Shown: positions 2 through 20,068, numbered from the stretch's first letter. The stretch: DNA of 64,000 bases from Candidatus Wolfebacteria bacterium GW2011_GWB1_47_1 (GCA_001029635.1 CP011209.1:286866-350865), one strand, 5' to 3'. The notes: generated by a model not told the origin, from the letters alone. Numbers and translations are program-made.

Positions 2-1078
2 GCTGTTGTTTGGGAAACTGATTTTGAAGATGTGGCTGACTGGTCTGCACCTAGGATATCAAATGGTTTTCCTAATACTTGGACGGGCAATCCATCAAGA
101 ACCCTAGATCCCCCCAAAAAGATGAATGGGCAGTGGTTGCACCCCAGTTCATGGGTCAGAACTTCGCCTTCAACTCTTGCAGTTTCTCAAGGCCCAATGG
201 CTACTATTGGAGCGGGACAAGGTAGAGAAAGCTCAAGAGGTTTGACTTACAATTTTGAATCAGGCAAGGGTAATCCTACATATAGTACCGGGTGGGCTGG
301 AGGCAGTCCTCTTACGATGTACTTCGGCGAAGCGGGATATCCTGAGCTTTGGGTGGAGATGTGGGTGAAATATCCAAGTGATATGGATTGGTGGGATGGG
401 TCTGATATTAATTATTCCGGTATAACGAAGGCTTTTTATATTGCCAGGTTTAATGGCGAGTTGACCGTTTCAACATCCTTGGCGGATGATCATTCGGTTG
501 AGACTAGGCCTACACACCCTGCGTGGCTGCCACATATGGGAAGCTTTTATTCTAGCAGGCCTTATTTTATGCAGTATTACAACCGTTCGCAAACTTCAAA
601 TGGAACTCCTGAAGTTTATGATGAAACCGTGGATGCTTGGTACAATAATAGCAGTTATTATCCTTATCAGAATATTCTCTTAAATAATCGTTATACGTAC
701 GCACTACCCTCCAGTAATCCTACCGTTGATACTATCAGAATGGATGGACAATGGCATAAATATACCTATCATGTAAAAATGAATTCCGCACCAGGCGTAG
801 CAGATGGAATTCAAGAGGTTAGTTTGGATGACGTGCGCATGTTTCGCAAGACAAACATGGCATTCATCTTGGATGGTGGTAGTGTTGAAAATGGTTGGAA
901 CTATATTGAATTAATGGACAATCATCATGTAGCTTCGCATATGTACACTGAAAATGTCAGTTACCCCGTGCAAATCGATGATGTGGTGATAAGCACAAAT
1001 TACATCGGTCCAGATTATATAGTGGGCGGGGTTGATATGATTGCTCCTGCCGCACCAACTGGATTAGGGGTGGAATAA
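2..1078 (+). CDS. Secreted beta-jelly-roll family protein carrying the C-terminal APAAPTGLGVE tag (5' partial; the gene starts upstream of the window)
   Basis: Frame is open from nt 2 (AVVWETDFEDVADWS...) and is near-identical to the start of paralog 8653..9768. Ends ...GGVDMIAPAAPTGLGVE*. The last 38 nt lie in a 167-bp block identical to 9741..9897. Confidence 0.7.
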   Translation, partial: AVVWETDFEDVADWSAPRISNGFPNTWTGNPSRTLDPPKKMNGQWLHPSSWVRTSPSTLAVSQGPMATIGAGQGRESSRGLTYNFESGKGNPTYSTGWAGGSPLTMYFGEAGYPELWVEMWVKYPSDMDWWDGSDINYSGITKAFYIARFNGELTVSTSLADDHSVETRPTHPAWLPHMGSFYSSRPYFMQYYNRSQTSNGTPEVYDETVDAWYNNSSYYPYQNILLNNRYTYALPSSNPTVDTIRMDGQWHKYTYHVKMNSAPGVADGIQEVSLDDVRMFRKTNMAFILDGGSVENGWNYIELMDNHHVASHMYTENVSYPVQIDDVVISTNYIGPDYIVGGVDMIAPAAPTGLGVE

Positions 1079-1207
1079 TTGGATGGGCGTTAAAATAGGT
1101 GTCCAGATAGACGCCTTAATTATGCAAAAACAAATTCTTAAAATCTTTTTCTTTAGCGCGATATTTTTTGCAGTGCCTAATTCTTCCCAGGCCACGATTA
1201 TTTTTGA
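1041..1207 (+). repeat. 167-bp segment 100% identical to 9741-9897 (tag codons, stop, 4-bp spacer, signal-peptide codons of the next gene)
   Basis: Direct comparison shows identity at an offset of 8700 nt. Divergence resumes at 1208 / 9898. Confidence 0.85.
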
Positions 1208-1842
1208 GGATGATTTTGATGCGCAAGCGGATTGGCAACCAACTTGTTTGGTTTGCGGTAAAAATGAGGATGGATATAATGGCGGAGGCGACTTGTCGGG
1301 GACACCTATTAATTGGAGTTATTGGAGAAATGATGAATATTGGAATCCTGCGACTGGAGATCCGACCAAACAGCCGACTTTGAAAATCTCAACCGATCAA
1401 TATAGTGGTCAAGGTGGAAAATCTTTGCAAGTTTGGAATGAATCCAACAATGGACATAGTGGCGACGGTTGGGGAGCTGACGGCCAATTGGCTAAATATC
1501 TTGGCGGTGAATTTGATGATATTTTTCTGCAAATGAAAATAAAAATGTCGCCAACTTTTCAATTTAAACGGAATCATTAAATTTTGGCAAAATGGCAACC
1601 TTCTGTATGAGAGAAATGATATCGAGTGGGTTGGCGCTCAGGGTCAGGTTGGCGTGGGTTGGAATATGGTTTCATTGGGTGGTAATGCTTTCAATCTTTT
1701 TTCTGATACGGCAAATAAAGCTGAGCAATGGTATGCACTGGATGACGTGGTAGTGAGCACGGAATATCTGGGACCTGGTTATGTTATTGGAAGTTTGGAT
1801 GCAACAGCTCCTGCCTCGCCAACAGGACTGAGTGTGGAATAA
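1083..1842 (+). pseudogene. Short frameshifted member of the secreted tag family
   Basis: Frame 0 encodes a signal peptide plus ATIIFEDDFDAQADW (1083..1580). Frame +1 continues ...NGIIKFWQNGNLLYERNDIEWVGAQ... and ends ATAPASPTGLSVE* (..1842). A single-base indel near 1560-1575 is inferred. The probable true ATG is 1122. Confidence 0.55.
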
Positions 1843-1908
1843 AAAAGTTCATAAGGTTTATAAAGTTTATGAAGTTCGTAAGGCAGAATACAAAATACGA
1901 TATACGAA

Positions 1909-3012
1909 ATGCTAACAAAAATGCAAAAACAAATTTTCAAAATCTTTTTCTTTCTTGCAGTATTTTTTATGCTGCCTAATTTTTCCCAGGCCGCAATTAT
2001 TTTTGAGGATAATTTTGATTCTCGAGACGATTGGAGCGTGCCCTATAATGATCTGGATCAGACTTGCAATAGGGAGGTGGGATGTACCGATGTTCCTGAC
2101 GGGTATTATGGTTATTATATTTCGCATTCAGTGATAACTCCCGCGACAGGAAACGGTTTGCATCTTGATAATATCAATAAAAGAGGTAATTCCGGCAAGG
2201 GTGTTACTTTTTGGGATCAAACTGATGGAACTGGCAATTGGGCGTCTGGAATGCAAATAGGTCTGGATTTTCCGCCACAAAATGAAATATACGTTCAGTA
2301 TTGGATCAAGATGCAACCGAATTATTCATATTACAAAGGAACCTATGCATCAATGCTGCGTAAAATGAATCACATTAGTCATTATTTATATAATGGTAAG
2401 CCGTTCACATTTTTCAGCGACGGAGGTTTTTTCCCAACAACCGTAAATCAAATCAGGTTTGCCAATGCAGGCAATGCGAATATTCAGAATTTCTTTTTTA
2501 TCCGGCCTGACCCGAGTTATAGCGGAACGCAGCCAGTTCCAATTATAACCAGAGGGATAAAGGACAGCACCAATACTGGGATATATAATTATTTTGATCT
2601 GCCTTCGGATGGACTGCCGATAGGAAATTGGGAGGGAACCGGCACCGAATATAATTCCCTGGGTATGTTTGCTGACGGGCAATGGCATTTGCTGGGATAT
2701 TATTTGAAAAACAACAGTGCGCCAGGAGTAGCTGATGGAACATATAAATTCTGGTATGACGGTAATATTCAGATTGATGCGACTGGCTTCATGTTTAGAG
2801 AAGCGTCTTCGACCTTGCCGGATGATATTTGGAACTTCTTGCACATCGGCGGGAATGCAATCAATCCATTTTTGGGAGCAGGAATTTCAGGTGAGCAGTG
2901 GTATGCAGTTGATGACGTGGCAGTGAGCACGGAATATTTAGGACCCGATTATATTATTGGAAGTTTGGATGCAACAGCTCCGGCCTCGCCAAGTGGATTG
3001 AGTGTGGAATGA
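1909..3012 (+). CDS. Secreted tag-family protein (jelly-roll/lectin-like core)
   Basis: Signal peptide MQKQIFKIFFFLAVFFMLPNFSQA, then AIIFEDNFD. Conserved WH..Y..KNNSAPGVADG and C-terminal tag ATAPASPSGLSVE*. Confidence 0.75.
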   Translation: MLTKMQKQIFKIFFFLAVFFMLPNFSQAAIIFEDNFDSRDDWSVPYNDLDQTCNREVGCTDVPDGYYGYYISHSVITPATGNGLHLDNINKRGNSGKGVTFWDQTDGTGNWASGMQIGLDFPPQNEIYVQYWIKMQPNYSYYKGTYASMLRKMNHISHYLYNGKPFTFFSDGGFFPTTVNQIRFANAGNANIQNFFFIRPDPSYSGTQPVPIITRGIKDSTNTGIYNYFDLPSDGLPIGNWEGTGTEYNSLGMFADGQWHLLGYYLKNNSAPGVADGTYKFWYDGNIQIDATGFMFREASSTLPDDIWNFLHIGGNAINPFLGAGISGEQWYAVDDVAVSTEYLGPDYIIGSLDATAPASPSGLSVE

Positions 3013-3064
3013 CTCAAGTATAAAGTATTTGGTATTATGTATGATGTATAAATACAAAAGATGT
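3013..3064 (+). repeat. Conserved 3'UTR element of the tag family (copy after gene 3)
   Basis: ctcaagtataaagtatttggtattatgtatgatgtataaatacaaaagatgt. Near-identical copies at 5213-5264 and 10853-10906, and a divergent one at 12063-12118. Confidence 0.7.
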
Positions 3065-3261
3065 AGAATATATAAAAGTTTATAAGGTAGGATGCAAAAT
3101 ACAAAGATACAAGATACGGAATACTTGATAATAAATACCGGGTTCAAAATATCACTAAAAAGTGGTATAATTGAACATATAGAAATTGATTTGTTACTTA
3201 ACATGTTACGTAACTCGTCTTAACTAAAGTCGTGCCAAGGCAGGCATGCTACGTAACAAAA

Positions 3262-5181
3262 ATGCAAAAACAAATACTAAAATTATTATTCCTGTCGGTA
3301 TTTTTTTTAATGCCACTTTTTGTCAGTGCTGATGTCAACACGATTATTCCTGATCCTGCCAATGTGACTGCATGCGGCACGCTTAATCAAGCCGGCGCAA
3401 CTTATGTTTTGCAGAATGATGTCAGTTCCGAAGGGAGCTGCTTTGCGATTGTGGCCAGTGGAATAACTCTGGATCTGAACGGTCATACTGTGACTTATGA
3501 CAATGGAACGCCGATAAATATTATGAATGGAAGCTTTGAGGATGAATTGGCTGGGTCTTGGGACACGGTTAATGCGCAAAATTTCTTGAGGTCTGCTGGA
3601 ACATATGTCAGTCCGGTTTCTGTGTATGCTGGATCGTACGCGCTAAAAGCTATTACTCCGACTCCGGATCAAGTCGTTACTTCACTTGGCACGGTGACGC
3701 TGGCTCCAAATACGCGCTATAGTCTGTCGGGAATGGTCTACAATCGGGTCAGTGACAACATCTTAATGTCAATTGAATTTACCGACACCATGAAAGCTAT
3801 CCAGACTGGAATCACGGATAGGGGATTTCAATATATAACATATGAATTCGTAACTGGAGACAGTGAAGAGACATACAATATTGCATTAAAAGTGACGGGC
3901 GCCGCCGCGGTCGGCACGGGCGCGGTTTATTTTGATGATATCAAGATTCAGCGCAATCGATTGGCAGGAGTTATGGTTGGTCCTGTGGAATGGCGAGTTG
4001 CATGGCAATCGCGCGGGTTTGATATAAAGAATTATGGAGGCGCTAATAATACCACAGTTAAGGACGGCAGCATAATACAAGGCAGTGGAAAAAGTGACTG
4101 GTCACACGCCTTAGCGAGCGAAAGCAACAGCGTTTCCGGTCACACATTCAGCGGACTGAATATCACAACAAACGGCGCAAATTCCTCAGCTATTTTGATG
4201 GATAGTTTGCAGAATGGAGAAATAAAATACAATACTTTGGCTGCTAATATGCCTGCGATTAAGTCAAGAGATCAACTGGATGGAGCTGTTTTGAGAGCGG
4301 ATGGATATAATAGTTTTATACACGATAATGTCATCACAAATGGTGTTCAAGGTGGCATTTTGGCTGGCACTGCGGTCGGTCAACTTCCGCAAGAAATTTA
4401 TAACAACAACATCACTCTGCAAGGAAGATATACTAATGGTTTTGCGATTTCTGGGAATAAAAGCATTATAAGAAATAATACTATTAATTGCGGAAGCGGT
4501 AATAATTCTTGTCGAGGCATCTTTATCGGGTCTGAATCCGAAGTATTCGATAATATTGTAGAAGTTCAAGATATACCCCGCAATCAGGAATACAATGGTT
4601 GTCAGGGGTATGGAACATATGGCATTCAGATGGAGTCTGCTGAAAACAGCGATGTTTATGGAAATGTCGTTACGGCAAATTCGCCAAATGAATGCCCTGC
4701 CACTGCTTTTCGCGCCAACCCGCAAGACGGATCAATAGCTTCTATCAATAATTTGATTCATCACAATACTTTCATTGCCTATGCTTCGGGTAGTGCCAGG
4801 GCAACGTCCCTTAAGTTATCAGGTTGTGATAACTCGATGATTTCAATTTATAGCAACACCTTCAGAACAAACAGGCGATGGATTTATGCTGAATTTGATG
4901 GCATGGTCGATGGATTGCGCTTGGTTAACAACAGATGGGAGACTTTCGGATCAATTGATGAGCCTTTTTACCCGTTTGAAAATTTTGTGTGGGATGGAAG
5001 TTTCGTTAAGGATATGGTGTTTGAAAATAATGTTTATGGGGCGGGAGATAAAGAAAGATTTGAATCTGAATTTTTTAGAAAAACTACTGTTTGGCCGGAA
5101 ATAGAAACCCTTTCGAATTTCTCTGTCATATTTTCAGATGTGACAGCGCCAGCCTCGCCAACAGGTCTCGGCGTAATGTAA
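3262..5181 (+). CDS. Secreted tag-family protein with a CBM4/9-like module and parallel beta-helix repeats
   Basis: ORF track 3232..5181; the family signal peptide MQKQILKLLFL begins at 3262. NGSFEDELAGSWD is CBM-like. Repeated N.IT.N.I beta-helix motifs. Tail DVTAPASPTGLGVM*. Confidence 0.7.
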   Translation: MQKQILKLLFLSVFFLMPLFVSADVNTIIPDPANVTACGTLNQAGATYVLQNDVSSEGSCFAIVASGITLDLNGHTVTYDNGTPINIMNGSFEDELAGSWDTVNAQNFLRSAGTYVSPVSVYAGSYALKAITPTPDQVVTSLGTVTLAPNTRYSLSGMVYNRVSDNILMSIEFTDTMKAIQTGITDRGFQYITYEFVTGDSEETYNIALKVTGAAAVGTGAVYFDDIKIQRNRLAGVMVGPVEWRVAWQSRGFDIKNYGGANNTTVKDGSIIQGSGKSDWSHALASESNSVSGHTFSGLNITTNGANSSAILMDSLQNGEIKYNTLAANMPAIKSRDQLDGAVLRADGYNSFIHDNVITNGVQGGILAGTAVGQLPQEIYNNNITLQGRYTNGFAISGNKSIIRNNTINCGSGNNSCRGIFIGSESEVFDNIVEVQDIPRNQEYNGCQGYGTYGIQMESAENSDVYGNVVTANSPNECPATAFRANPQDGSIASINNLIHHNTFIAYASGSARATSLKLSGCDNSMISIYSNTFRTNRRWIYAEFDGMVDGLRLVNNRWETFGSIDEPFYPFENFVWDGSFVKDMVFENNVYGAGDKERFESEFFRKTTVWPEIETLSNFSVIFSDVTAPASPTGLGVM

Positions 5182-5212
5182 ATGAAGACGGAGCGGGCTG
5201 AGTGTGGAATGA

Positions 5213-5264
5213 CTCAAGTATAAAGTATTTAGTATTGTGTATAATGTATAAGTACAAAAGATGT
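5213..5264 (+). repeat. Conserved 3'UTR element (copy after gene 4), preceded by a vestigial second tag
   Basis: 5195-5212 gggctgagtgtggaatga (GLSVE*) is identical to the end of gene 3, out of frame and 13 nt after the real stop. Confidence 0.7.
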
Positions 5265-5331
5265 AAAATGCAATAAAAGCTTAAGAAGCTTAATACAAGA
5301 TACTAAATACAAGATACGAAATACTAACAAA

Positions 5332-6885
5332 ATGCAAAAACAAATTCTAAAATTTTTCTTCCTACTTGCAATATTTTTCTTGCTACCAAATTTTGCAAGT
5401 GCAGCTGATTTTCATATTGGGACAGGGCAACCATACGCAACTATTGGTTCCTTCGCGTGGTCTTCATTGGTCGCAGGAGATACAGTTTATATCCATGCCA
5501 GGGATAATCAGGAACCATATTACGAACATTTATATGTAAGTGCGGCATTGCAAGGAACCGAGCAGAATCCAATCAATATAATTGGTGTCAATGATGGATC
5601 AGGAAATCAGCCAATTCTCGATGGTAGAAATTCCACAACAGGTCCCAATTTTGATGCTTATGGTGATTCACAATACCATTCTCGGTTGGGTATTGTTTTT
5701 TTTGGTCCCAGTGAAACAGCAGGGTATGGTTCAGCGCCGCAATGGATAACGTTATCAAATATTAAAATTCAAAATTATAGAAATGTTTCTACTACTGATG
5801 AGATTGGGGTGACGACAAATGATGTTAGCGGCAGTTGTGTTTATTTGCAAGGAGGACAACAAATAACATTGGACAAATTAACGATCACGGGATGCGCCGA
5901 TGGTATTTTTGGCAAAGATAACGATTTTCCTGTTAGGTATATAACACTACAAAATTCATCTATTTATGATAATGGTGTTGTTGATGATTATCTTTATCAT
6001 AATATTTATACCGAAGTTAAATATCTGACAATGCAGTATAATCATTTTGGACCTACTGTTAATGGTTCTCCTGGAAACAACATTAAGGATAGAAGTGTGG
6101 GTTTCGTATTTCGTTATAATTGGGTTGACGGTGGAGCGCACCTTTTGGATATTGTGGAATGTCAAGATAACTGCGCAAATCATACTTCTGATCCTGCCTG
6201 GGATGACGTTTTTGTCTACGGTAACATCTTTTATGCTGGTCCTGGCTCTGCCTCTCAACTTTTTCATCTCGGAACAGGTGATACTGGAGCCTTAGCATCT
6301 TCTTGGCGCAAAAATTTATATTTTTATAATAATACTATTGATTATGAGAGAAATCAGAGCGACGTGTATTATATGAACATATTCCAACTTAGTGGAGATC
6401 AGCAAACTGTTTATTTTGACAATAATATATTTTTTGCGCAGCCGGAAACGGTTGGCCAGGCGCACTCTGACGTGTATTTGCAATACGATGGTTCAGCTGC
6501 TCCGTCTGCATATGGCAATATGATTATTGGAAAAAACTGGATTTCTCCTGATTGGAGTGTGACCAAGCCAGGTGTCACGCCAACTGGTATTATTTCTGGA
6601 GCGTTAAATATAATTTCACCGGCTGGAAATGATCCGTATTTTATTGATTCCGCTACGGGTGATTATCACCTCATGTCATCCTCTGGTGCAATTGGTGTTG
6701 CAAGTTCTTTACCAGCCTTGATTAGTTCAGGAAATGCGCTTGGGTATGATTTTACACCAGTAAAACAATACATAAACCATCAATTATTTGAAAATAGACT
6801 AAACATTTCAGATCTGGGCGCTTATCAATATGCTATTGATGATATTGTTGCCCCTGCCGCGCCAATGGGATTGGGTGTGATATAG
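5332..6885 (+). CDS. Secreted tag-family protein with a right-handed beta-helix (pectate-lyase-like fold)
   Basis: Signal peptide MQKQILKFFFLLAIFFLLPNFASA. NIKIQNY, TITGCADGIF and LQNSSIYDNG beta-helix repeats. Tail DDIVAPAAPMGLGVI*. Confidence 0.7.
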   Translation: MQKQILKFFFLLAIFFLLPNFASAADFHIGTGQPYATIGSFAWSSLVAGDTVYIHARDNQEPYYEHLYVSAALQGTEQNPINIIGVNDGSGNQPILDGRNSTTGPNFDAYGDSQYHSRLGIVFFGPSETAGYGSAPQWITLSNIKIQNYRNVSTTDEIGVTTNDVSGSCVYLQGGQQITLDKLTITGCADGIFGKDNDFPVRYITLQNSSIYDNGVVDDYLYHNIYTEVKYLTMQYNHFGPTVNGSPGNNIKDRSVGFVFRYNWVDGGAHLLDIVECQDNCANHTSDPAWDDVFVYGNIFYAGPGSASQLFHLGTGDTGALASSWRKNLYFYNNTIDYERNQSDVYYMNIFQLSGDQQTVYFDNNIFFAQPETVGQAHSDVYLQYDGSAAPSAYGNMIIGKNWISPDWSVTKPGVTPTGIISGALNIISPAGNDPYFIDSATGDYHLMSSSGAIGVASSLPALISSGNALGYDFTPVKQYINHQLFENRLNISDLGAYQYAIDDIVAPAAPMGLGVI

Positions 6886-6926
6886 GTAGGTGAGTATTTA
6901 AATAAGTATTTAGATTTATTATTGAG

Positions 6927-8648
6927 ATGCAAAATAAAAACTTAAAATTATATCTTTTCCTTGCGATATTCTTCTTGTTGCCTAATTTTGCGAATGCATT
7001 TGGTAATCCGGTGAGTTTTTATAATATCCAACCGTATACAAAAGGCACAAGTTCGAATTTCCCATTGTATCCAAAATCAACAGCACTGGAGCCGCAAAAG
7101 GGTCAATGTGTTTATGATGAAAATTATGGCAGTGAAGTTTGCAAAGTTGCTGATACCTCTGAATTTACAGTTGGGCAAATAGGGGATGCGGTCAGGCCTC
7201 CCTATAGTCGCTGGAGAATAGATAGTAGCGATGGAAGCAAATATTTCTTGCTTAAGGATGGTGAAACTCCCGCCGGCAGTGGAAAAGGTCAGACGGTTAT
7301 TTTTAATTCTGCGGATGATTCGATTCATAAGATAATAACTGAAATAAATAGTGGTGAGCCGCGCGAACTTCGTTGGGACTATTCAGGCACCAAGCAGAAT
7401 TCTATGTATTATGTTTCTGGATGCACCTTTTATGAATATGATATTGTTTCAGGTTTAAGTACTATTGTGCACAATTTTGGAAATGATTTTGCAAATTGTG
7501 GGAGAATTTTAAACGACGTGGAAGGCGATTCGTCCAGTGATTCCCGCTATTGGGCGTTTATGATTCAGAATCCTTATGATGGCAGTAAATATCCTATGCG
7601 TGCGATTGTTACTTATGACAAGCAAACCGATTCTATTTTAGGAACTTTGGATTATGCAGCCTATGCCGCAGCTGGGGGCACTTCAGAAAGTATGCCCACC
7701 CCTAATATGGTGGATATTTCACCGTTAGGAAATAAGGTTGTTTTGTTGAATGGGCGCTCATGGGGAGCGGTTGTGACAATTACTGGACCTTGGACAGATG
7801 AAGGTGTTGGAGTTTGGAGTTCTCCATATCAGTCCCTTACTAACGGAAATAATGCTTTTAATTGGGTTAAGGTCGATGGCGTTATATTGACTAGTAAAAC
7901 TCCTATAGATGGTGATAGACAATGGACGCGCGTAAGTGCTGAGAATAAATTGTATGTGAGATTGACTGGCGGAGAGAGTCCTGCTTCGCATAGCATCACA
8001 CTGGAATATGGGAAACGTCCTAATGATTTGAATTCAATTTTTGATGGTCCTCATGCTTTTGCTTTTGATTTTTCTAGTCCGGTGAAAGTTTGCAACGACG
8101 AAACTCACGGTGGATGGGCTTTTGATTTGAATGGTAATGAAGTGTATGTCTGTCAAGTCAATAATGGAAATTGGGCAAACGCTGATGGAGACACTATTGC
8201 TTATACTGATATTTTAACTGGGCAAACGAATACTATCATGTATCATAGCGACATTGGATGGGACGTAGGAGGATGGCACTTTGGTAGATTTTACAATAGT
8301 AACATACGTGGTTGGGTGTATATGACAAGTTATAGCAACAGTGATACAAGTTTAAGTTGGATGCGCAATCAGGCGTTTATGCTGGAGCTAAAACCATTCG
8401 CAGAACACCCCAGAGTTTGGCGCATTGCAGATACGCACAATAATTATCCTGGAGCTGCTGCTTATAAGCGTGAAGCATTTTCGCCGATAACACGTGATGG
8501 TTTGAAGATTTATTGGGGCTCGGATTGGCCTGGAGGTAATGGAACAGTGGATACATATTCAGTGCGTCTTCCTGATAATTGGTGGAATGTTCTTAATGGA
8601 AATGATGAAATTGCACCCGCTGCGCCAAGTGGTTTAGCAGTTCAATAA
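6927..8648 (+). CDS. Secreted tag-family protein with a large unknown core
   Basis: Signal peptide MQNKNLKLYLFLAIFFLLPNFANA. Tail DEIAPAAPSGLAVQ*. Confidence 0.65.
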   Translation: MQNKNLKLYLFLAIFFLLPNFANAFGNPVSFYNIQPYTKGTSSNFPLYPKSTALEPQKGQCVYDENYGSEVCKVADTSEFTVGQIGDAVRPPYSRWRIDSSDGSKYFLLKDGETPAGSGKGQTVIFNSADDSIHKIITEINSGEPRELRWDYSGTKQNSMYYVSGCTFYEYDIVSGLSTIVHNFGNDFANCGRILNDVEGDSSSDSRYWAFMIQNPYDGSKYPMRAIVTYDKQTDSILGTLDYAAYAAAGGTSESMPTPNMVDISPLGNKVVLLNGRSWGAVVTITGPWTDEGVGVWSSPYQSLTNGNNAFNWVKVDGVILTSKTPIDGDRQWTRVSAENKLYVRLTGGESPASHSITLEYGKRPNDLNSIFDGPHAFAFDFSSPVKVCNDETHGGWAFDLNGNEVYVCQVNNGNWANADGDTIAYTDILTGQTNTIMYHSDIGWDVGGWHFGRFYNSNIRGWVYMTSYSNSDTSLSWMRNQAFMLELKPFAEHPRVWRIADTHNNYPGAAAYKREAFSPITRDGLKIYWGSDWPGGNGTVDTYSVRLPDNWWNVLNGNDEIAPAAPSGLAVQ

Positions 8649-8652
8649 AATT

Positions 8653-9768
8653 ATGAAATATAAATACTGCAAAACTTTTTTCTTGGCGGCAATATTTTTC
8701 ATGCTGCCTAATTTTGCAAATGCGGCTGTTGTTTGGGAAACTGATTTTGAAGATGCGGCTGACTGGTCTGCGGTGAGACCGTCTCCTTCGGGAATATCCT
8801 TTCCGAATTCTTGGACGCTAAAGCCGGGAGGGCCAAGCGTGGAACCTCCCAAGAAAAATGACGGTTCCTGGCTTCATCCCAATAGTTGGAGCAGAATTGC
8901 GCCTTCGGTCCTTACGAATAACATTACCCCTATGGCAACTATTGGATCCGGACAGGGCAAAGACAATTCCAGGGGCATGACATACAACGTGGAAGTTTCC
9001 GGTGTTTCTGGTACTTGGAGTGGCGGAAGCCCGCTCACGATGTATTTGGGAGCTGATGGATATCCTGAGCTGTATGTTTCCATGTGGGTAAAATATGATT
9101 CAGAGTTCACTTGGCTACCTGCTAGCCCAGCTAGCGGTTCCCAGCAAAAATTAGTTTATATTTCCAGGCTTAATGTGCCGATAAGCGCTACTGCCGATGC
9201 TGATAACCATTCCAACGGACCGCTACATCCGTCCTGGCTTCCGCATTGGTATAATTATATTTCAGTTTCTCCGTACTATGCCTTTTATATGAACAGGTCA
9301 CAGCAATCCAATGGTTCCTTAGTGTCATATGATCAAACCAAGGACATGTGGTCAATACATCCTTCCTATTACCCGCTCAATGCTCCATTTAAATGGCCGG
9401 AATCCAACCCTCATATTGTGAGTGTGCAATCCGACGGGTGGTGGCACCATTACGAATATCACATTAAAATGAATTCCGCTCCCGGCGTAGCTGATGGCGT
9501 GCAGGAAGTTTGGTTGGATGGCATCAAGAGGTTTTCCAAAAGTGACATGCCTTTTGTACTGGATGGAGGAAGCACTGCAACCGGATGGAACTATGTGGAA
9601 CTTTTTGATAATACCAATATTCTTTCCCATCCTGCATCTGAAAATGTGACGTATCCTATATATATCGATGATGTAGCGATCGGCACCACGTATGCCGGTC
9701 AAAACTATGTTATTGGAGGTATTGATGTGATTGCTCCTGCCGCACCAACTGGATTAGGGGTGGAATAA
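8653..9768 (+). CDS. Secreted tag-family protein (jelly-roll), full-length paralog of the partial gene at the window start
   Basis: Signal peptide MKYKYCKTFFLAAIFFMLPNFANA plus AVVWETDFEDAADW. Tail IDVIAPAAPTGLGVE*. Sits 4 bp after the previous gene. Confidence 0.75.
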   Translation: MKYKYCKTFFLAAIFFMLPNFANAAVVWETDFEDAADWSAVRPSPSGISFPNSWTLKPGGPSVEPPKKNDGSWLHPNSWSRIAPSVLTNNITPMATIGSGQGKDNSRGMTYNVEVSGVSGTWSGGSPLTMYLGADGYPELYVSMWVKYDSEFTWLPASPASGSQQKLVYISRLNVPISATADADNHSNGPLHPSWLPHWYNYISVSPYYAFYMNRSQQSNGSLVSYDQTKDMWSIHPSYYPLNAPFKWPESNPHIVSVQSDGWWHHYEYHIKMNSAPGVADGVQEVWLDGIKRFSKSDMPFVLDGGSTATGWNYVELFDNTNILSHPASENVTYPIYIDDVAIGTTYAGQNYVIGGIDVIAPAAPTGLGVE

Positions 9769-9811
9769 TTGGATGGGCGTTAAAATAGGTGTCCAGATAG
9801 ACGCCTTAATT

Positions 9812-10852
9812 ATGCAAAAACAAATTCTTAAAATCTTTTTCTTTAGCGCGATATTTTTTGCAGTGCCTAATTCTTCCCAGGCCACGATTATTTTTGAAGA
9901 TAACTTCGATGATTCTCCTGATTGGCAGTCGCAGCAAACTGTTGCCAAATCTGTTGGTGGGAATGATCGGGCATGGCCAGCGACTTATGTCGATGCCTGC
10001 TCAAGCGCGTGTCCCCCTCAAAGATGGACGGCTTACAGAGCGAGTGCTTCTTATTTTACTGATACTCCCGGCAATGACACGTATGTTCTCAATACAGATG
10101 GTGCTCGTGGCGGCAGTGGAAAAGGCATCACGCTTAATGTTGAATCAACTGGCAGCTATGGCGATTGGGCGGGCGGATCTCTTGATTTGTCCTTAGGCTC
10201 AGTTGGATACCAAGAACTTTTTGTGAAGTACTGGCTTAAGTATGATTCAAATTGGCTTTGGACAAATCCTGGCAATACTCAACACGGTCAGCAAAAATTG
10301 ATCCGAATTTCCAGGTTTAGCGGAGACATAAATGATTATAATAATCATAATCCACAAATGTTTTTCACACCCACAGAAAATGGCCCTTCTTGGATGCCAG
10401 ATTGGTATTATAATAAGTCCTTCCCCCCAGCTTCATTTTTTTCAAGTGAGTTTTTTAACACTCAGGCGAATGGCTCAATAGGATACGGGCCGACTCAGAC
10501 ATTTGCATCACTCGTTTGGCCGTCTGACGGCGGGTGGCATAGCTATGAATTCAGGACAAAAATGAATAGTGCACCTGGTGCTGCGAATGGCGAATGGGAA
10601 ATCTGGATTGACGGTCAAAGCACCCCGGACAAGCATCAAGTGAAAACAGATGTTCTCTGGGTTGATTCAAATGGTTCAGTAACTCAAGGTTGGAATTATT
10701 TGATGTTTTTGGATAATATCACCGTGGCTCCTGCGCCACTCTCAGAAAAGAAAGAAATGCAGATATATATGGATGATGTGGTAGTGAGCACGACGCGGTT
10801 ATCTGCTGACATCATTGCTCCTGTCGCACCGAGTGGATTGAATGTGGAATAA
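9812..10852 (+). CDS. Secreted tag-family protein (jelly-roll)
   Basis: ORF track 9773..10852; the signal peptide MQKQILKIFFFSAIFFAVPNSSQA starts at 9812. Its 5' end is DNA-identical to gene 1122... Tail ADIIAPVAPSGLNVE*. Confidence 0.75.
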   Translation: MQKQILKIFFFSAIFFAVPNSSQATIIFEDNFDDSPDWQSQQTVAKSVGGNDRAWPATYVDACSSACPPQRWTAYRASASYFTDTPGNDTYVLNTDGARGGSGKGITLNVESTGSYGDWAGGSLDLSLGSVGYQELFVKYWLKYDSNWLWTNPGNTQHGQQKLIRISRFSGDINDYNNHNPQMFFTPTENGPSWMPDWYYNKSFPPASFFSSEFFNTQANGSIGYGPTQTFASLVWPSDGGWHSYEFRTKMNSAPGAANGEWEIWIDGQSTPDKHQVKTDVLWVDSNGSVTQGWNYLMFLDNITVAPAPLSEKKEMQIYMDDVVVSTTRLSADIIAPVAPSGLNVE

Positions 10853-10906
10853 CTCAAGTATAAAGTATTTGGTATTACGTATGATGTATAAATACAAAAA
10901 GATGTG
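10853..10906 (+). repeat. Conserved 3'UTR element (copy after gene 8)
   Basis: ctcaagtataaagtatttggtattacgtatgatgtataaatacaaaaagatgt. Confidence 0.7.
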
Positions 10907-11000
10907 AAATACATAAAAGTTTATAAAGTTCGTAATGTTTATAAAGCAGAATACTAAATACTAAATACGAAATACTAATAAAAAGTGGTATAATTAAGAA

Positions 11001-12062
11001 ATGATAAAACAAATGCTGAAAACTTTTCTTTTTCTCGCGATGTTTTTCTTGCTGCCAAATTTTTCCCAGGCCGCAATTATCTTTGAGGATAATTTCAATG
11101 ATTCTCCCGATTGGCAATCGGCTGAGTCTTATCCGAGCACGAATGCCGGCTGGCCAAACACCTGGAAGGATAAACCAGGTGGTCCAAGTCAGCCCCCTCC
11201 GCAAAACTGGACGGCGTACAGTGCAGCTATCCCAAGATGGGACAGGGGTCCAACTTGGAAATTAGATGCTAGTGGTGCTCGAAATTCCGGAAAGGGTATC
11301 ACTTTTGCAGTTGAGGCTGTGCATACCTGGGCGGGCGGTGGTCTGGATTTATATCTGGGAAACGTTGGATATCAAGAATTATATGTACGGGGATATTACA
11401 AATATGATCCAGTAACTTTTCATTGGCCGACTATAAACAATGAAGGCATTAATAACGGGAATTATCATAAGATTGCCAGGATTTCCAGATATCAACTGGA
11501 GCCATCCTTGGTAAATAATCCGCAGCAATTTTTAGCTCCCAGTTATCAGGCGCCAACTTTCTATCCTGAGGTTGCAGTAAACACGGGCACTGGTTATCAA
11601 AATCCGCCAGATCTCAATGCTGTCCATTTTCTTGGCGCGCGCGTTTTTGATCCTGGCGCTGGCGATGCTTCGGCGGAAGATGTTTATACTCTGCCAATGC
11701 CATCGGATGGTGGTTGGCATAGTTATGAATTTAGGGTAAAGATGAACAGCGCGCCGGGCGTTGCGGATGGCGAATGGGAGGTGTGGGTTGATGATGGCGT
11801 AAATCCTTACCAGCATCATAAGCGGACTGGGCTTGCTTGGATCGGCGCCGATTCAGTAAATGGCCTTTCTCCTGGTTGGAACTGGGTTAATGCTTTGGAT
11901 AATATAACCATAAATCAAACAGGAACCATCTACGAGAACACGGAGATGAAAATATTTCTAGATGATTTTGTGATCAGTGATTCTTTTATTGGTAAGGATT
12001 ATGTGATTGGCACTGCTGATATTACCGCACCTGCCGCACCGACAGGATTAGGGGTGACGTAA
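11001..12062 (+). CDS. Secreted tag-family protein (jelly-roll)
   Basis: Signal peptide plus AIIFEDNFNDSPDWQSAE. WHSYEFRVKMNSAPGVADGEWEVWVDDG. Tail DITAPAAPTGLGVT*. An extended -10 box TGGTATAAT lies at 10985-10993. Confidence 0.75.
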   Translation: MIKQMLKTFLFLAMFFLLPNFSQAAIIFEDNFNDSPDWQSAESYPSTNAGWPNTWKDKPGGPSQPPPQNWTAYSAAIPRWDRGPTWKLDASGARNSGKGITFAVEAVHTWAGGGLDLYLGNVGYQELYVRGYYKYDPVTFHWPTINNEGINNGNYHKIARISRYQLEPSLVNNPQQFLAPSYQAPTFYPEVAVNTGTGYQNPPDLNAVHFLGARVFDPGAGDASAEDVYTLPMPSDGGWHSYEFRVKMNSAPGVADGEWEVWVDDGVNPYQHHKRTGLAWIGADSVNGLSPGWNWVNALDNITINQTGTIYENTEMKIFLDDFVISDSFIGKDYVIGTADITAPAAPTGLGVT

Positions 12063-12150
12063 ATTCATGTATAACGTATTTGGTATTATGTATGAAGTAT
12101 GAATAATATAAAATTCAAGATTTAAATACCTATTTAATACCCAACTAAAA

Positions 12151-13287
12151 ATGCCAAAGCAAACACTAAAAGCTTTTCTTTTTCTAGCGATGTTTTTCTT
12201 GTTGCCTAATTTTTCCCAGGCCGCAATTATTTTTGAGGATAATTTCAATGATTCTCCCGATTGGCAATCGGCCGAATCAAACCCCGGTGATAATGTGGAC
12301 TGGTTCAGTTCTTCTTGGATACGCAATCCATCTGGCCCACCGGAACCTCCCATGCAAAATTGGACTTCATATCGGACAGAAATTCCATTGGGTAACTCAG
12401 TGAAAAGATATATTTTAAGTGAAGAAGGGAAACGTGGAATAAGCGGAAAAGGGGTAACTTATAATGTGGAGAGCAGCGGGACGTGGTCGGGAGGTGGTCT
12501 GGATCTTTATCTTGGAAATACTGGATATCAGGAAATTTTTGTACGCTTTTATTTGCGTTATGATCCCGCGACTTGGGTGTGGGCACTGCGTGAAACTGGT
12601 TTAAATGGGGAAAAGCAGAAACTCATACGCATCTCGAGGTTAAAGGATGAGCCTACGGCCCAAACTGCATGGAATCCTCAGTTGTTTGACACTGCAGCGT
12701 CAGGTGGACATCAGATGCCAGTTTTATATCCGGATGTCAAAGAAAATAACGGCGCTGGTTATAATACCCCATCTGTAAATGGCTTGTATGGTTTGTATCT
12801 TGAATATACCAGGCGCTTTGATCCTGAATATGGAAGCGAATCCCCATCTGAAACAAGATCATTCCCCATGCCGTCTTTAGGATTGAAAAATTTTGTTCCT
12901 CCGACTTCAGGAACTGATTCAAGTACGGATTATTATAAAACTGATGGAGATTGGCATTCCTACGAATTCCGCGTGAAAATGAATAGCGCGCCAGGGGTGG
13001 CTGATGGAGAATGGGAAACTTGGGTTGATGGTGGGGAAAATCCTGCCCAGCATACATTAAAAATCGGAGTAGCTTGGGTTTCATCTGGAGGATCAGTAAG
13101 TCCAGGATGGAACTGGTTTACAGTGCTTGATAATGTGAATACAGCTACCGGTCTGCCAAACGGTACGATTATGAAGATGTACATGGATGATTTTGTAGTC
13201 AGTGATTCCTTTATTGGTAAAGATTATATCATCGGTACAGCTGATATCACCGCACCTGCAGCACCGACAGGGTTGGAGGTAATATAA
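12151..13287 (+). CDS. Secreted tag-family protein (jelly-roll)
   Basis: Close paralog of 11001..12062. Tail DITAPAAPTGLEVI*. Confidence 0.75.
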   Translation: MPKQTLKAFLFLAMFFLLPNFSQAAIIFEDNFNDSPDWQSAESNPGDNVDWFSSSWIRNPSGPPEPPMQNWTSYRTEIPLGNSVKRYILSEEGKRGISGKGVTYNVESSGTWSGGGLDLYLGNTGYQEIFVRFYLRYDPATWVWALRETGLNGEKQKLIRISRLKDEPTAQTAWNPQLFDTAASGGHQMPVLYPDVKENNGAGYNTPSVNGLYGLYLEYTRRFDPEYGSESPSETRSFPMPSLGLKNFVPPTSGTDSSTDYYKTDGDWHSYEFRVKMNSAPGVADGEWETWVDGGENPAQHTLKIGVAWVSSGGSVSPGWNWFTVLDNVNTATGLPNGTIMKMYMDDFVVSDSFIGKDYIIGTADITAPAAPTGLEVI

Positions 13288-13330
13288 TTAGATGGGTATT
13301 TAAATAAGTATCCAGATAGACGCCTTAATT

Positions 13331-14491
13331 ATGCGAAAACAAATTTTAAAATCAATTTTATTTCTGGGTACTTTTTTAATGCTGCCTAATTCTTCCCAGG
13401 CTGCGATTATTTTTGAGGATAATTTTGACGACACTCCCAATTGGCAATCGCAGCAGCTTACTTTCGGAGGCGGAGGGATCGCTTGGGGCACGCCAACTTT
13501 CCAGGGAACTTGCATTGGATATTGTCCGCCGCAAAATTGGACTTCATATCGTACTTCGCAATCTCTCTGGACGCCAAATGCTAGAGATACGTATCTTATC
13601 GATTCAAGCGGATCGCGCACAGTTAATGGTAAGGGTTTGACATATAACGTGGAGTCTAGTGGTGAATGGGGAACTTGGGCTGGCGGAGGAATTGATAAAT
13701 ATCTCGGCGTCACCGGTTATCCCGAGCTTTATGTTAGATTCTGGCTGAAGGAGTCGGCTGAATTTTGTTGGGGATCGGAAGCGTTAAATCTCAATGCCAT
13801 GGGAAAGTTAATAAGAATCAGCGCACTAAGACGGGATCCAACTAGTAATCCGAACATTTTCAATCCGCAACTCTATCCTTCATCCGATGTAAGCCCAACG
13901 CTGATTGGGAATGCATATCGCCGATTTCAGCCAAATTATGGCGTGCCTGCTCAATTCGATATGGAAGAAAGATATGCGCCTAATTATGAATATGGACCAC
14001 AGTGCACGTTTGGTCCGCAACCTTCCTCTTGCGCATCGGAAGCTCCCAGCGCGATAACTTTTCCGCATGACAATTCTGGGTATTGCGGCGATGACCAATG
14101 GCATAGCTATGAATATTATGTGAAACTTAATTCAGCCTTGGATGCGACCGATGGAATTTATAAAGCTTGGCTGGATGGAACTTTGGTGGCGCAAAAAAGT
14201 AATATTCCTTGGGTAAAATCCGGCACTGATACTAATGGCACTGCGATGACGTTGGATACTGGTTGGAATTGGGTGATGATCGCTGACAATATCGATTCAA
14301 CCGCTTACGCTAAATCTGACAACGTTGAGATGTCTAGATATATAGACGATGTGGTTATGTATACGCCGATGAACGGTTCTGAAATGGCGTGTGGTGGGGC
14401 ATGTATTGCCGGACGACTGCCGCTAACCTATTTACAATCAGGGCTTGATAGTACCCCTCCCTCCGCCCCGACAGGGCTTAGCATAGAATAG
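13331..14491 (+). CDS. Secreted tag-family protein (jelly-roll), the most divergent tag
   Basis: Signal peptide MRKQILKSILFLGTFLMLPNSSQA. Tail GLDSTPPSAPTGLSIE*. Confidence 0.7.
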   Translation: MRKQILKSILFLGTFLMLPNSSQAAIIFEDNFDDTPNWQSQQLTFGGGGIAWGTPTFQGTCIGYCPPQNWTSYRTSQSLWTPNARDTYLIDSSGSRTVNGKGLTYNVESSGEWGTWAGGGIDKYLGVTGYPELYVRFWLKESAEFCWGSEALNLNAMGKLIRISALRRDPTSNPNIFNPQLYPSSDVSPTLIGNAYRRFQPNYGVPAQFDMEERYAPNYEYGPQCTFGPQPSSCASEAPSAITFPHDNSGYCGDDQWHSYEYYVKLNSALDATDGIYKAWLDGTLVAQKSNIPWVKSGTDTNGTAMTLDTGWNWVMIADNIDSTAYAKSDNVEMSRYIDDVVMYTPMNGSEMACGGACIAGRLPLTYLQSGLDSTPPSAPTGLSIE

Positions 14492-14670
14492 GGGTTATAT
14501 GGTATACTTATCCCAAATCCTATATCAAGGAAAACAAAGACCCACGTGTGTATGGCTCTGAATGGTTGCTTCTGAATCGTGGCGAGTTGACTGGCAAAAC
14601 CGACCTAAGAAATCTACTATGTATAGTTGATTTAGGGTCGGTTTTTACATTATATGAACATAAAAAATAA

Positions 14671-15033
14671 ATGAATATACGATCAAAAAAAACAAGGATA
14701 TATCTAGTGGCGATTATGCTCGCGGTAGCTCTGACGGCACTGATCATGACAAACAGGAATGCATCCCGGGAGGAGGGGGGTGAAGCAATATTATCATGGA
14801 ATGCAAATAAGGAAACTGATGTGATAGGGTATCGAGTTTACTACGGAACGGAAAAGCGTACGGGGGAGTGTCCCCTGGGAGGGTATGCGGATAAGATAGA
14901 TGTGGGGAATAGGACGACACATACGGTGACGAATTTGGAAAAAGGAAAGCGATATTATTTCTCTACGACATCATATAATAAAGGAGGAAAGGAAAGCTGC
15001 TTCTCTCAGGAAGTAAGTAAAGAAATAAAATGA
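14671..15033 (+). CDS. Small membrane-anchored protein consisting of one Fn3 domain that lacks the A-strand
   Basis: N-terminal TM or signal anchor, then AILSWNANKETDVIGYRVYYG...GKRYYFSTTSYNKGG. This is a fibronectin-III domain starting at the B-strand. Confidence 0.6.
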   Translation: MNIRSKKTRIYLVAIMLAVALTALIMTNRNASREEGGEAILSWNANKETDVIGYRVYYGTEKRTGECPLGGYADKIDVGNRTTHTVTNLEKGKRYYFSTTSYNKGGKESCFSQEVSKEIK

Positions 15034-15078
15034 TCGTGGGCGGGATCAATAATACAAACACTATAAAACGCAATACAT

Positions 15079-16785
15079 ATGAACAAAAAAGCATTTATCG
15101 GTTTACTGACGTTCGTTTTGGGAATGATGGCAGTATCCCATGCGCATGCCGGAACGGCAACACTTACATGGAATGCCAATAACGAGTCGGATCTGTCCGG
15201 GTATAAGGTCTATTATGACACTACGTCTCATTCCGGGAATTGTCCAAGCGGGTTTGGGCTAAATGTAGTCAGTGTCGGCAATGTAACGACGCACACGTTC
15301 AATAATCTTACGGATGGACAAACATATTACTTTCAGGTAACGGCAATCGATACATCGAGCAATGAGAGTACATGCTCGGCGCAGGTGTCAAAGGTGATTG
15401 CCGCAACGGACACTACCACACCAATAACCACCGCATCGCCACTCGGCGGATCATACGCATCTGCGCAAACGGTGACGATGTCGGTCAACGAAACAGCAAC
15501 CGTTTACTACACGCTTGATGGTTCAACCCCAACGATTGCCTCAACGCAGTACACGGGTCCTATATCGATCACATCGACAAAGACACTCAAATATTTCGCA
15601 AAAGATACGGCAGGGAATAGTGAGGCAGTGAAGACACAGGCATATACGATCACAATTCCGGACACTACCGCACCAATAACCACCGCATCACCACTCGGCG
15701 GATCATACGCATCTGCGCAAACGGTGACGATGTCGGTCAACGAAACAGCAACCGTTTACTACACGCTCGACGGGACAACTCCGACCGTTGCTTCAACACA
15801 GTACACGGGTCCTGTATCGATCACATCGACAAAGACGCTCAAATATTTCGCAAAAGATACCGCAGGGAACAGCGAGGCAATAAAATCACAGACGTATGTT
15901 ATTACGATCGTATCGAGTGACACTACTGTGCCGTCGGTCCCGGAAAATCTTACGGCAACGCCGATCGCTCCAACGCTGATCAATCTCGCATGGAGCGCGA
16001 GTACGGACGATGTGGGAGTGACGCACTATAAAGTCTATCGCCATGATGTGGAAATCGCGACAGTAACCGGGTTAGCCTATTCGGATGAAGGACTCAGTCT
16101 TTCGACAGTGTATCGATATAGGATAGCCGCAGTTGACGCAGCCCTAAACACATCCGCTCGCTCAAATGAGGTAAGCGCGACAACGAGTGCGCTTCCGGTA
16201 GCCGCATCGGGAGGAGGATCATCGAGTGGTGGTGGGGGAGGAGGCGGAGGATCGTCAGCGAGTGTGACCCAATCACAACCTACGACCCCTGTACTATCTG
16301 GTACGACGCAACAAGCTACGACTACTGCGACACCCGTTGTTACTGTGATAACGACGGGATCTCAACAGGGAACGACGGTAACTGCCGGAAGCGGGGGAGG
16401 GCAATACTCCCAGTTCGGCGCATATGTAACAAGAAAGCATCTTGTGTACGGATCGCGAGGGGAAGACGTAAAAAAGCTCCAGGAGTTTCTTAGGGTAGAT
16501 GGATACCTTAAGGAAAGCGCAACCGGCTATTACGGAAAGGCGACACAAGCCGCCATTCAAAAGTTTCAACAAGAGCACGCAATCGCTGGACCGGGAAAGG
16601 ATGGATATGGTGAGGTGGGCATAAAAACACGTTCAGTCATGAATCAGCATTTAAATGGATCGGTAGCGGGGGTCGCAACGGCTACCGATACACAGGAGTT
16701 GTTAAAAAAGCAGATCGCGCTTTTGCAGCAAAAAGTCATCGAGCTACTCAAGCAGTTGGCTGAGATGCAAAAGAAGAGTCTATGA
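15079..16785 (+). CDS. Cell-wall-associated scaffold protein: signal peptide, Fn3 lacking A-strand, 2x 84-aa chitobiase-C-like repeats, complete Fn3, G/S/T-rich linker, peptidoglycan-binding domain, coiled coil
   Basis: MNKKAFIGLLTFVLGMMAVSHAHA|GTATLTWNAN... is Fn3 from the B-strand. TQYTGPISITSTKTLKYFAKDTAGNSE occurs twice. The second Fn3 has a full A-strand (DTTVPSVPENLTAT). PG_binding_1-like (GSRGEDVKKLQEFLRVDGYL..GYYGKATQAAIQKFQ). C-terminal heptad coiled coil. Confidence 0.7.
   Translation: MNKKAFIGLLTFVLGMMAVSHAHAGTATLTWNANNESDLSGYKVYYDTTSHSGNCPSGFGLNVVSVGNVTTHTFNNLTDGQTYYFQVTAIDTSSNESTCSAQVSKVIAATDTTTPITTASPLGGSYASAQTVTMSVNETATVYYTLDGSTPTIASTQYTGPISITSTKTLKYFAKDTAGNSEAVKTQAYTITIPDTTAPITTASPLGGSYASAQTVTMSVNETATVYYTLDGTTPTVASTQYTGPVSITSTKTLKYFAKDTAGNSEAIKSQTYVITIVSSDTTVPSVPENLTATPIAPTLINLAWSASTDDVGVTHYKVYRHDVEIATVTGLAYSDEGLSLSTVYRYRIAAVDAALNTSARSNEVSATTSALPVAASGGGSSSGGGGGGGGSSASVTQSQPTTPVLSGTTQQATTTATPVVTVITTGSQQGTTVTAGSGGGQYSQFGAYVTRKHLVYGSRGEDVKKLQEFLRVDGYLKESATGYYGKATQAAIQKFQQEHAIAGPGKDGYGEVGIKTRSVMNQHLNGSVAGVATATDTQELLKKQIALLQQKVIELLKQLAEMQKKSL
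15409..15912 (+). repeat. Near-identical tandem 252-bp direct repeat inside the scaffold gene (two 84-aa domain copies)
   Basis: 15409-15660 and 15661-15912 differ by only a few nucleotides. Confidence 0.8.
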
Positions 16786-16824: not shown

Positions 16825-16825
16825 T

Positions 16826-20063: not shown

Positions 20064-20068
20064 TATAT

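Follow-up and report, generated by a model that had tools for sequence, protein, structure and literature searches.

The window analysed here is a 64,000-nt stretch of the genome of Candidatus Wolfebacteria bacterium GW2011_GWB1_47_1 (CP011209.1, positions 286866–350865), a tiny groundwater bacterium of the Parcubacteria within the Candidate Phyla Radiation (CPR). It opens with an array of genes encoding proteins that share one short C-terminal tail, followed by two genes that we propose to encode their acceptors. ORF analysis identified 11 consecutive open reading frames (ORFs) with this tail on the plus strand (window positions 2–14,491), all where a first-pass annotation of the same DNA had placed 11 consecutive same-strand genes; ten were intact, and the second proved to be a pseudogene. 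All 11 ended in the consensus D-x-x-A-P-x-x-P-x-G-L-x-[VI]-x-stop, at the extreme C-terminus as annotated, and a six-frame search of the 64 kb with a regular expression for tail plus stop returned 11 matches, exclusively the tails of the array. The full contig showed the array to be longer than had been supposed, as three extra tail genes (locus L005; proteins of 471, 475, and 379 aa) lay upstream of the window, giving a total of 14 genes, with a Mur ligase gene as their upstream limit. In public records, the tail proteins are named “hypothetical”, “Repeat-containing”, or “fibronectin type III domain-containing”.

All the genes of the window array lie on the plus strand. Gene 1 (2–1078) is cut at its 5′ end by the window, owing to which its leader is visible in the full contig only; its complete protein (P0005) has 386 aa, belongs to a jelly-roll family, and ends in the tail DMIAPAAPTGLGVE (1034–1075). 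Gene 2, the pseudogene (1083–1842), meets a stop at 1580 and continues in the +1 frame up to the tail DATAPASPTGLSVE (1798–1839), an internal deletion having removed its central WH.YEF.KMNSAPG segment. Gene 3 (1909–3012; 367 aa; tail at 2968–3009) encodes a divergent jelly-roll member with a weak match to polysaccharide lyase (PL) family PL14. The product of gene 4 (3262–5181; 639 aa; tail DVTAPASPTGLGVM at 5137–5178) gave sub-threshold Pfam matches only (HpiC1-like, DUF4397), and members of its cluster carry the public-record name “Right handed beta helix domain-containing protein”. Gene 5 (5332–6885; 517 aa; tail DIVAPAAPMGLGVI at 6841–6882) encodes a right-handed beta-helix protein, according to a sub-threshold match to Pfam Beta_helix and its public-record name, and gene 6 (6927–8648; 573 aa; tail DEIAPAAPSGLAVQ at 8604–8645) a core with no assigned fold. 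Gene 7 (8653–9768; 371 aa; tail at 9724–9765) encodes a jelly roll by AlphaFold2 prediction. The remaining four encode members of the jelly-roll family: gene 8 (9812–10,852; 346 aa counted from the MQKQ start; tail DIIAPVAPSGLNVE at 10,808–10,849), gene 9 (11,001–12,062; 353 aa; tail at 12,018–12,059), gene 10 (12,151–13,287; 378 aa, P0009; tail at 13,243–13,284), and gene 11 (13,331–14,491; 386 aa; tail DSTPPSAPTGLSIE at 14,447–14,488).

The common, near-identical leader that had been described for the array holds for the majority of the genes, where it is a Sec signal peptide of the MQKQILK...LPNF(S/A)(Q/N)A type. Variants were found at 8653 (MKYKYCKTFFLAAIFFMLPNFANA), 6927 (MQNKNLK...), and 3262 (...LMPLFVSA). 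The three upstream genes carry the same tail behind unrelated signal peptides, and therefore the tail is independent of the leader. The stop codons were TAA in eight cases, TAG in two (genes 5 and 11), and TGA in one (gene 3), in agreement with the annotated absence of recoding. No transmembrane-encoding extension was found after the stops in the intergenic sequences of the window, nor any basic anchor after the tail, and the gene lengths were called identically in four independent assemblies, which indicates that the stops are real and not sequencing errors, the artefact that the first-pass annotation had named as a possible refutation. Recoding or read-through is thus ruled out by the three stop codons in use, the lack of a transmembrane-encoding extension, and the four concordant assemblies.

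The cores that precede the tail are unrelated to one another, comprising jelly rolls, beta-helices, and the 573-aa core. AlphaFold2 modelled the protein of gene 7 as a jelly roll (mean predicted local distance difference test, pLDDT, of 73; predicted template-modelling score of 0.78), and a Foldseek search with this model returned polysaccharide lyases as the nearest solved folds, namely PL20 (glucuronan lyase 2ZZJ), PL36 (Aly36B), and PL14, with E values from 3.5e-9 to 1e-7 and template-modelling scores (TM-scores) of 0.35–0.58. The lyase-type fold for which the first-pass annotation had proposed a test was recovered for one jelly roll by structure prediction, and Pfam matches stayed below threshold (15.4 bits against a cutoff of 27 for PF21294, and 17 bits against 29.9 for PF14099 on the homologue P0003). 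The array proteins are probably sugar-degrading, and their commonest core is polysaccharide-lyase-like in that it resembles PL20, PL36, and PL14 in fold, with weak Pfam matches (PL14/Polysacc_lyase) at the sequence level. In the same gene 7 model, the well-modelled parts of the core had pLDDT values of 65–93, and the tail had a mean of 45 over residues 361–370 and 34 at residue 371, with values below 50 over residues 366–371, so that by prediction the tail does not pack against the core. This low pLDDT, together with the presence of the tail on cores that are not jelly rolls, rules out that it belongs to the jelly-roll fold.

The tail did not correspond to any of the C-terminal sorting signals with which it was compared, as the first-pass annotation had already stated for sortase, PEP-CTERM, and GlyGly-CTERM signals. 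These signals (LPXTG/sortase, PEP-CTERM, GlyGly-CTERM, PGF-CTERM, MYXO-CTERM, and the C-terminal domain, CTD, of the type IX secretion system, T9SS) are also conserved C-terminal elements on functionally unrelated secreted proteins. However, the tail proteins end one residue past the motif, with no transmembrane helix, basic cluster, or CTD of ~80 aa, and no cognate sorting enzyme was found nearby among the ORFs scanned. Neither the hydrophobic segment and basic tail that accompany the LPXTG motif nor the transmembrane helix and Arg/Lys cluster that accompany the PEP-, GlyGly-, PGF-, and MYXO-CTERM motifs were present, and there was no NCBIfam match to any of them. Likewise, the 14-aa tail, which is predicted to be disordered, is not the beta-sandwich of ~80–100 aa of a T9SS CTD and had no Pfam or NCBIfam match as such. 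Across all the tail proteins, neither Pfam nor NCBIfam holds a model covering the tail, and the cores gave sub-threshold matches only. Some distant jelly-roll homologues (L020, L037) bear a MYXO-CTERM-like end in place of the tail.

The sequence of the tail is maintained at the peptide level. A pairwise comparison of the 14 tails at the six motif codons (A, P, P, G, L, and V) gave 185 identical, 335 synonymous, and 26 nonsynonymous pairs, as against 102 identical, 83 synonymous, and 725 nonsynonymous pairs at ten codons farther upstream in the same genes. As the motif codons differ mostly synonymously, recent gene conversion is excluded as the cause of the tail. Its position is equally constant: in 11 CPR loci, each of the 41 distinct tail ORFs ended exactly one residue past the V (41/41), and only three internal motif matches were found in the 182 ORFs of at least 150 aa. 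The persistence of the tail in orthologous loci, where its absence would by the first-pass annotation have counted as a refutation, was confirmed in the arrays of other CPR genomes with five (L002), four (L009), three (L010), and six (L017) tail genes. In the first of these (Parcubacteria GWC1_38_22, positions 5548–17,417), the array is flanked by MacB/FtsX-type ABC transporter genes on one side and a HlyD-like gene on the other, and no Fn3 lacking strand A was found within 10 kb of it. We also searched metagenome contigs for DNA encoding A-P-A-A-P-x-G-L-x-V-x-stop, leaving the conserved Asp unspecified, and obtained ~30 long ORFs with the tail, from both low- and high-GC lineages and with many different cores; the Asp three residues before A-P was present in most of them. 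Looser ends, P..P.n[LIV].[VI] followed by one to five residues, were found in distant jelly-roll homologues from Marinobacter, Motilimonas, and Salinibius and from deltaproteobacterial and Bacteroidales genomes. The tail is very probably a selected functional module, and the dedicated recognition, docking, or sorting tag foreseen by the first-pass annotation gains support from its conservation, peptide-level selection, fixed register, diverse cores, and lack of a known model.

Of the 115 DNA-pattern matches in the metagenome scan, 69 were rejected as noise; an unrelated sequence from the human gut, ...APAAPTGLPVYW, with TGG and no stop, accounted for most of these. This recurrent short sequence (PAPHFRHTAPQGAAYTAAPAAPTGLPVYW; loci L044–L157, ~69 loci) is a chance match to the pattern, with TGG rather than a stop, and is abundant enough to suggest a gene common among gut bacteria or phages.

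A passing mention of fibronectin type III (Fn3) proteins without the A strand in the first-pass annotation proved decisive for reading the motif. The tail is not an orphan motif, since it is recognisable as the A strand of an Fn3 domain together with the inter-domain linker before it (PF00041, profile positions ~1–9). On its own it produced no fn3 match in a Pfam scan, being too short to score. In the homologue P0003, however, the alignment columns of the tail run on into a complete Fn3 domain, which Pfam matches from profile position 3 onwards, within the residues “PENISAT”. Similarly, in giant multi-Fn3 proteins of the acceptor subfamily, the pattern D..[AP]P..P.[ILVF] occurs exactly 21 residues before the tryptophan motif of strand B in 21/21 internal repeats, and the first repeat of these proteins comes directly after the signal peptide, without the A-strand segment.

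The two genes that follow the array encode Fn3 domains without strand A (A-less Fn3). The first of these proposed acceptors (14,671–15,033, plus strand; 120 aa) has an N-terminal transmembrane anchor and then an Fn3 that starts from strand B (“...GGEAILSWNAN”; Pfam fn3 9–81). The second (15,079–16,785, plus strand; 568 aa) consists of a signal peptide, an A-less Fn3 (Pfam fn3 9–76), two CHB_HEX_C domains, a complete Fn3, and a PG_binding_1 domain. Its predicted cleavage falls between AHA and GTATLTW, with strand B directly after it (“GTATLTWNAN”), and its later, complete Fn3 has a “DTTVPSVPENL” strand of its own. Both mature proteins are predicted to have one to three residues before strand B, and in homologues of the small acceptor, a transmembrane helix or a lipobox consistently leads straight into this strand. 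The split point is thus complementary, as the tail covers fn3 profile positions ~1–9 and the acceptor matches start at position 9. In addition, the A-less Fn3 of the related protein P0048 was modelled by AlphaFold2 with six strands, and Foldseek with this model retrieved tandem Fn3-like domains only.

The order of tail genes, transmembrane-anchored A-less Fn3 gene, and gene for a signal-peptide A-less Fn3 fused to a further module was found in the window and, with a hidden Markov model of the acceptor domain run over all the fetched loci, in two other loci fetched by the tail pattern alone (L061 and L154). It was also found in three loci reached independently through the close acceptor homologues P0021, P0026, and P0019 (L158/159, L160, and L161), where two or three tail genes lie immediately upstream of the acceptors. 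The other flanking genes differ among these syntenic loci (NUDIX, gyrase, RelA/SpoT, CdaA), which leaves the A-less Fn3 genes as the sole neighbours conserved beside the tail genes. The co-occurrence of the tail with A-less Fn3 that the first-pass annotation proposed to look for therefore holds in six loci, but several tail arrays lack an acceptor in the retrieved sequence.

Single-chain homologues complete this picture. P0003 and the protein of locus L011 combine a core, a complete Fn3, and a C-terminal segment in a single chain, this segment being dockerin-like as assigned by eye, with no Pfam dockerin match; besides L011, a core plus a complete Fn3 in cis was found in L012, L015, and L018. 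A real dockerin (PF00404) is absent from the window proteins and was detected by Pfam only in a CPR adaptor of locus L042, whose acceptor pair shares an 81.5-kb contig with the tail array L009. Together, these sequences form a Rosetta-stone relation, in which one chain (core, A strand, strands B–G, and dockerin-like segment) corresponds to two chains (core with A strand; strands B–G with dockerin). Locus L042 (1427–4816) contains, in order, a transmembrane-anchored A-less Fn3, a signal-peptide A-less Fn3-Dockerin_1 protein, and an Ig-rich surface protein of 816 aa that looks cohesin-like by eye in its N-terminal part, with no Pfam match there. Furthermore, each protein of one family (P0041, P0048, and P0055) carries both parts, an A-less Fn3 N-terminally and the tail C-terminally, and proteins of the P0041 type may form a head-to-tail polymer. 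A functional link between the tail and the A-less Fn3 proteins is likely.

In the wider high-GC family of these proteins (P0041–P0080, and L124 768–1703 on the minus strand), the N-terminal part consists of a signal peptide and an A-less Fn3, and the chain ends either in the bare tail or in the tail followed by a two-Cys mini-domain of ~45 aa. The neighbourhoods of L124 and L137 have a phage-like look.

The interpretation that we favour, at roughly even chances, is that a split Fn3 serves surface display through donor-strand docking; binding by strand complementation and the display role are inferred from the sequences and the gene neighbourhoods. According to this proposal, the enzymes would leave the cell by the Sec pathway, using their signal peptides, with the tail as the last part out of the translocon, and in an anchored A-less Fn3 the tail would slot in next to strand B, taking the place of the absent edge strand. 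The free C-terminus of the donor would then abut the N-terminal end of the acceptor, recreating the geometry of a normal core–Fn3 tandem, and the one-residue register would leave the carboxyl end of the donor against the N-terminus of the acceptor. Anchoring could take place at the membrane (transmembrane helix), at the wall (peptidoglycan-binding domain), or, in another genome, on a scaffold via dockerin, and the outcome would be a variable complement of proteins, polysaccharide-lyase-like or beta-helical, tethered to the surface of a cell without an outer membrane. The title of Dutta et al. (2005), as cited in PMC11666773, reports in vitro fragment complementation of an Fn3 domain, which makes such strand docking physically reasonable. 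The free C-terminus might also be sealed covalently to the Gly at the acceptor's N-terminus. In its broadest form, the A-strand tag would complete A-less Fn3 receptors on membrane-, wall-, or scaffold-anchored proteins in a cellulosome-like exchangeable display that extends over the CPR, probably other phyla, and some phage-like elements, with head-to-tail polymerisation of P0041; for this whole set of claims, we consider the chances to be slightly short of even.

Several observations weigh against strand docking. AlphaFold2 left the tail unpaired in the model of P0048, which carries both parts, although this model carries little weight, as a fit in cis is sterically unlikely. N-terminal A-less Fn3 domains are widespread (13,485 matches at E ≤ 1e-3), and giant multi-Fn3 proteins are likewise without strand A in their first domain, where it may simply be dispensable. 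The more distant acceptor homologues (L162–L164) have no tail genes nearby, so that the reverse test succeeded in 3/6 cases; conversely, the tail arrays L002, L010, L017, and L048 have no acceptor within the retrieved sequence, and the looser tails of Proteobacteria and Bacteroidales have none nearby except for a weak match in L039. Within the window itself, a terminator-like hairpin parts the array from the acceptor genes. An alternative is an autonomous role of the tail without any protein partner, as a protective proline-rich cap or stalk, in wall or polysaccharide binding, or in the contact of this episymbiont with its host cell, its likeness to the Fn3 A strand being due to descent from a truncated Fn3 and the A-less Fn3 genes being neighbours in the same surface-protein island for unrelated reasons. 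The similar tails of Proteobacteria and Bacteroidales without nearby acceptors, the CPR arrays without adjacent ones, and the general frequency of N-terminal A-less Fn3 all agree with such a role. We nevertheless regard it as unlikely, because it leaves unexplained the gene order shared by six loci with otherwise unrelated flanks, the exact complementarity of the split point, the fused homologues, and the one-residue register.

The strict register with respect to the free C-terminus is also what would be expected if the tail were a signal for sorting or processing, recognised by an enzyme (for instance a transpeptidase, protease, or glycosyltransferase so far overlooked) through which the protein is cleaved, modified, or covalently attached, the A-less Fn3 proteins being either the acceptor substrate or no more than co-regulated surface proteins. 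As a rule, known C-terminal signals are read by enzymes, the Asp three residues before A-P is conserved, and acceptors of the signal-peptide type would expose an N-terminal Gly after predicted cleavage (A followed by GTATLTW). Even so, no enzyme gene is conserved beside the arrays in the six syntenic loci, no sortase-like or other candidate tail-reading enzyme was found among the window ORFs scanned, no transmembrane or basic retention segment follows the tail, and the transmembrane-anchored acceptors have no free N-terminus, so we hold an enzyme-read signal to be quite improbable. Finally, the shared ends could be a by-product of duplication or gene conversion that homogenised tail, spacer, and leader, or of gene truncation, with no selected function, as might be thought from the two conserved spacer classes, the identity of the junction at 1078–1122 to that at 9768–9812, the tail remnant after 5181, and the pseudogene. 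Against this, the tail codons differ synonymously and those flanking them mostly nonsynonymously (see above), the tail is conserved over different genomes, phyla, and cores, and the three upstream tail genes have unrelated leaders, all of which makes this explanation extremely improbable; gene conversion as the sole cause is ruled out by the codon test, and the four concordant assemblies speak against assembly noise as the source of the synonymous differences. Most likely, the tail system is a new variant of strand-complementation docking.

Such a system would have parallels in known ones. Donor-strand complementation, as in chaperone-usher pili and also in type V pili, TasA fibres, and archaeal threads, likewise involves an Ig-like beta-sandwich encoded without an edge strand and a short terminal peptide of another polypeptide, here proposed to supply that strand. 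In chaperone-usher pili, however, strand G is missing and the donor is an extension of the next pilin, whereas here the fold is Fn3, the missing strand is the N-terminal strand A, and the donor is the extreme C-terminus of enzymes; the proposed outcome would be enzyme docking instead of fibre growth, although the P0041 family could polymerise. Neither the Pfam gene tables nor the ORF lists for the window and the syntenic loci showed any chaperone or usher genes (L061 and L154 as ORF termini only). With the cohesin–dockerin pairs of cellulosomes, the system shares the arrangement of many secreted carbohydrate-active proteins with one small C-terminal module and few receptor-bearing anchors, and also the real dockerin of the L042 adaptor and the dockerin-like segment of P0003. 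It differs from them in that the tag has 14 residues without Ca-binding repeats, the receptor is an incomplete Fn3 and not a cohesin, and binding would complete a fold instead of using a domain–domain interface. As in SpyTag/SpyCatcher and in vitro Fn3 complementation, a strand of 13–14 residues would be split from an Ig-like domain and would reconstitute that domain in trans; those pairs are engineered, with an isopeptide bond in the case of SpyTag, whereas this would be a natural, genome-encoded split for which covalent chemistry has no support.

Full-text literature searches returned no description of a split-Fn3 tag, and within these searches, Pfam, and NCBIfam, the view of the first-pass annotation that the system is undescribed stands. 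CPR bacteria, or Patescibacteria, are tiny, mostly uncultured episymbionts with a single membrane, and to our knowledge, the way in which they retain secreted enzymes and adhesins at their surface is poorly understood. If the proposal is right, a split-domain pair of tag and receptor would explain the retention of a whole set of putative polysaccharide-degrading proteins, and the rule D..AP..P.GL.V.-COOH would annotate dozens, and likely many more, of proteins now named “hypothetical” or misnamed “Fn3 domain-containing”. It would also provide a natural and very small peptide tag/catcher pair for biotechnology, and a function for the widespread N-terminal Fn3 domains without strand A.

Outside the CPR, the multi-Fn3 proteins P0161, P0185, and P0192 (379 to 2612 aa) lack the A strand only in the first Fn3, after the signal peptide, from which it follows that A-less N-terminal Fn3 is common beyond this group; P0161 and P0185, which are full-length, have T9SS-like C-terminal ends. 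In Marinobacter daqiaonensis (L039), a gene at 4426–6531 encodes a 701-aa protein in which a Pro-rich linker leads directly into a C-terminal Fn3, and lies ~3 kb upstream of a jelly-roll homologue ending in ...PSPPSNLAVQ.

The junctions between the array genes retain traces of their history. The first ~45 residues of gene 2 and the 43-nt spacer that precedes it (1079–1121) are identical to those of gene 8 (spacer at 9769–9811); genes 1–2 and 7–8 therefore stem from a segmental duplication, after which gene 2 decayed through a frameshift and an internal deletion. Fourteen bases past the stop of gene 4, an orphan tail remnant (5195–5212, plus strand; GGGCTGAGTGTGGAATGA, encoding GLSVE-stop) precedes a conserved AT-rich spacer, and suggests a cassette replacement at the tail junction, in which a beta-helix cassette that brought a tail of its own was inserted before an older tail end. 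Conserved spacers fall into two classes, one of ~41–43 nt of the “TTGGATGGGCGTTAAAATAGGTGTCCAGATAGACGCCTTAATT” type, after 1078, 6885, 9768, and 13,287, and the other AT-rich, of the “CTCAAGTATAAAGTATTTGGTATTATGTATGATGTATAAA” type, after 3012, 5181, 10,852, and 12,062; they might be promoters, RNA elements, or recombination sites. The long hairpin that separates gene 11 from the first acceptor (14,596–14,645, plus strand; −22.8 kcal/mol, z = −3.96) is followed by a U run (UUUUU) and is probably an intrinsic terminator; a scan for consensus promoters and terminators gave counts at the level of shuffled sequence. The rest of the window is mostly housekeeping, including a CdaA diadenylate cyclase with a YbbR domain (16,826–18,082, minus strand), archease (18,197–18,610), and RecO (19,512–20,063), along with a 625-aa DUF11 surface-type protein (20,015–21,892) and a PilB/T2SSE ATPase (38,799–40,481, minus strand).

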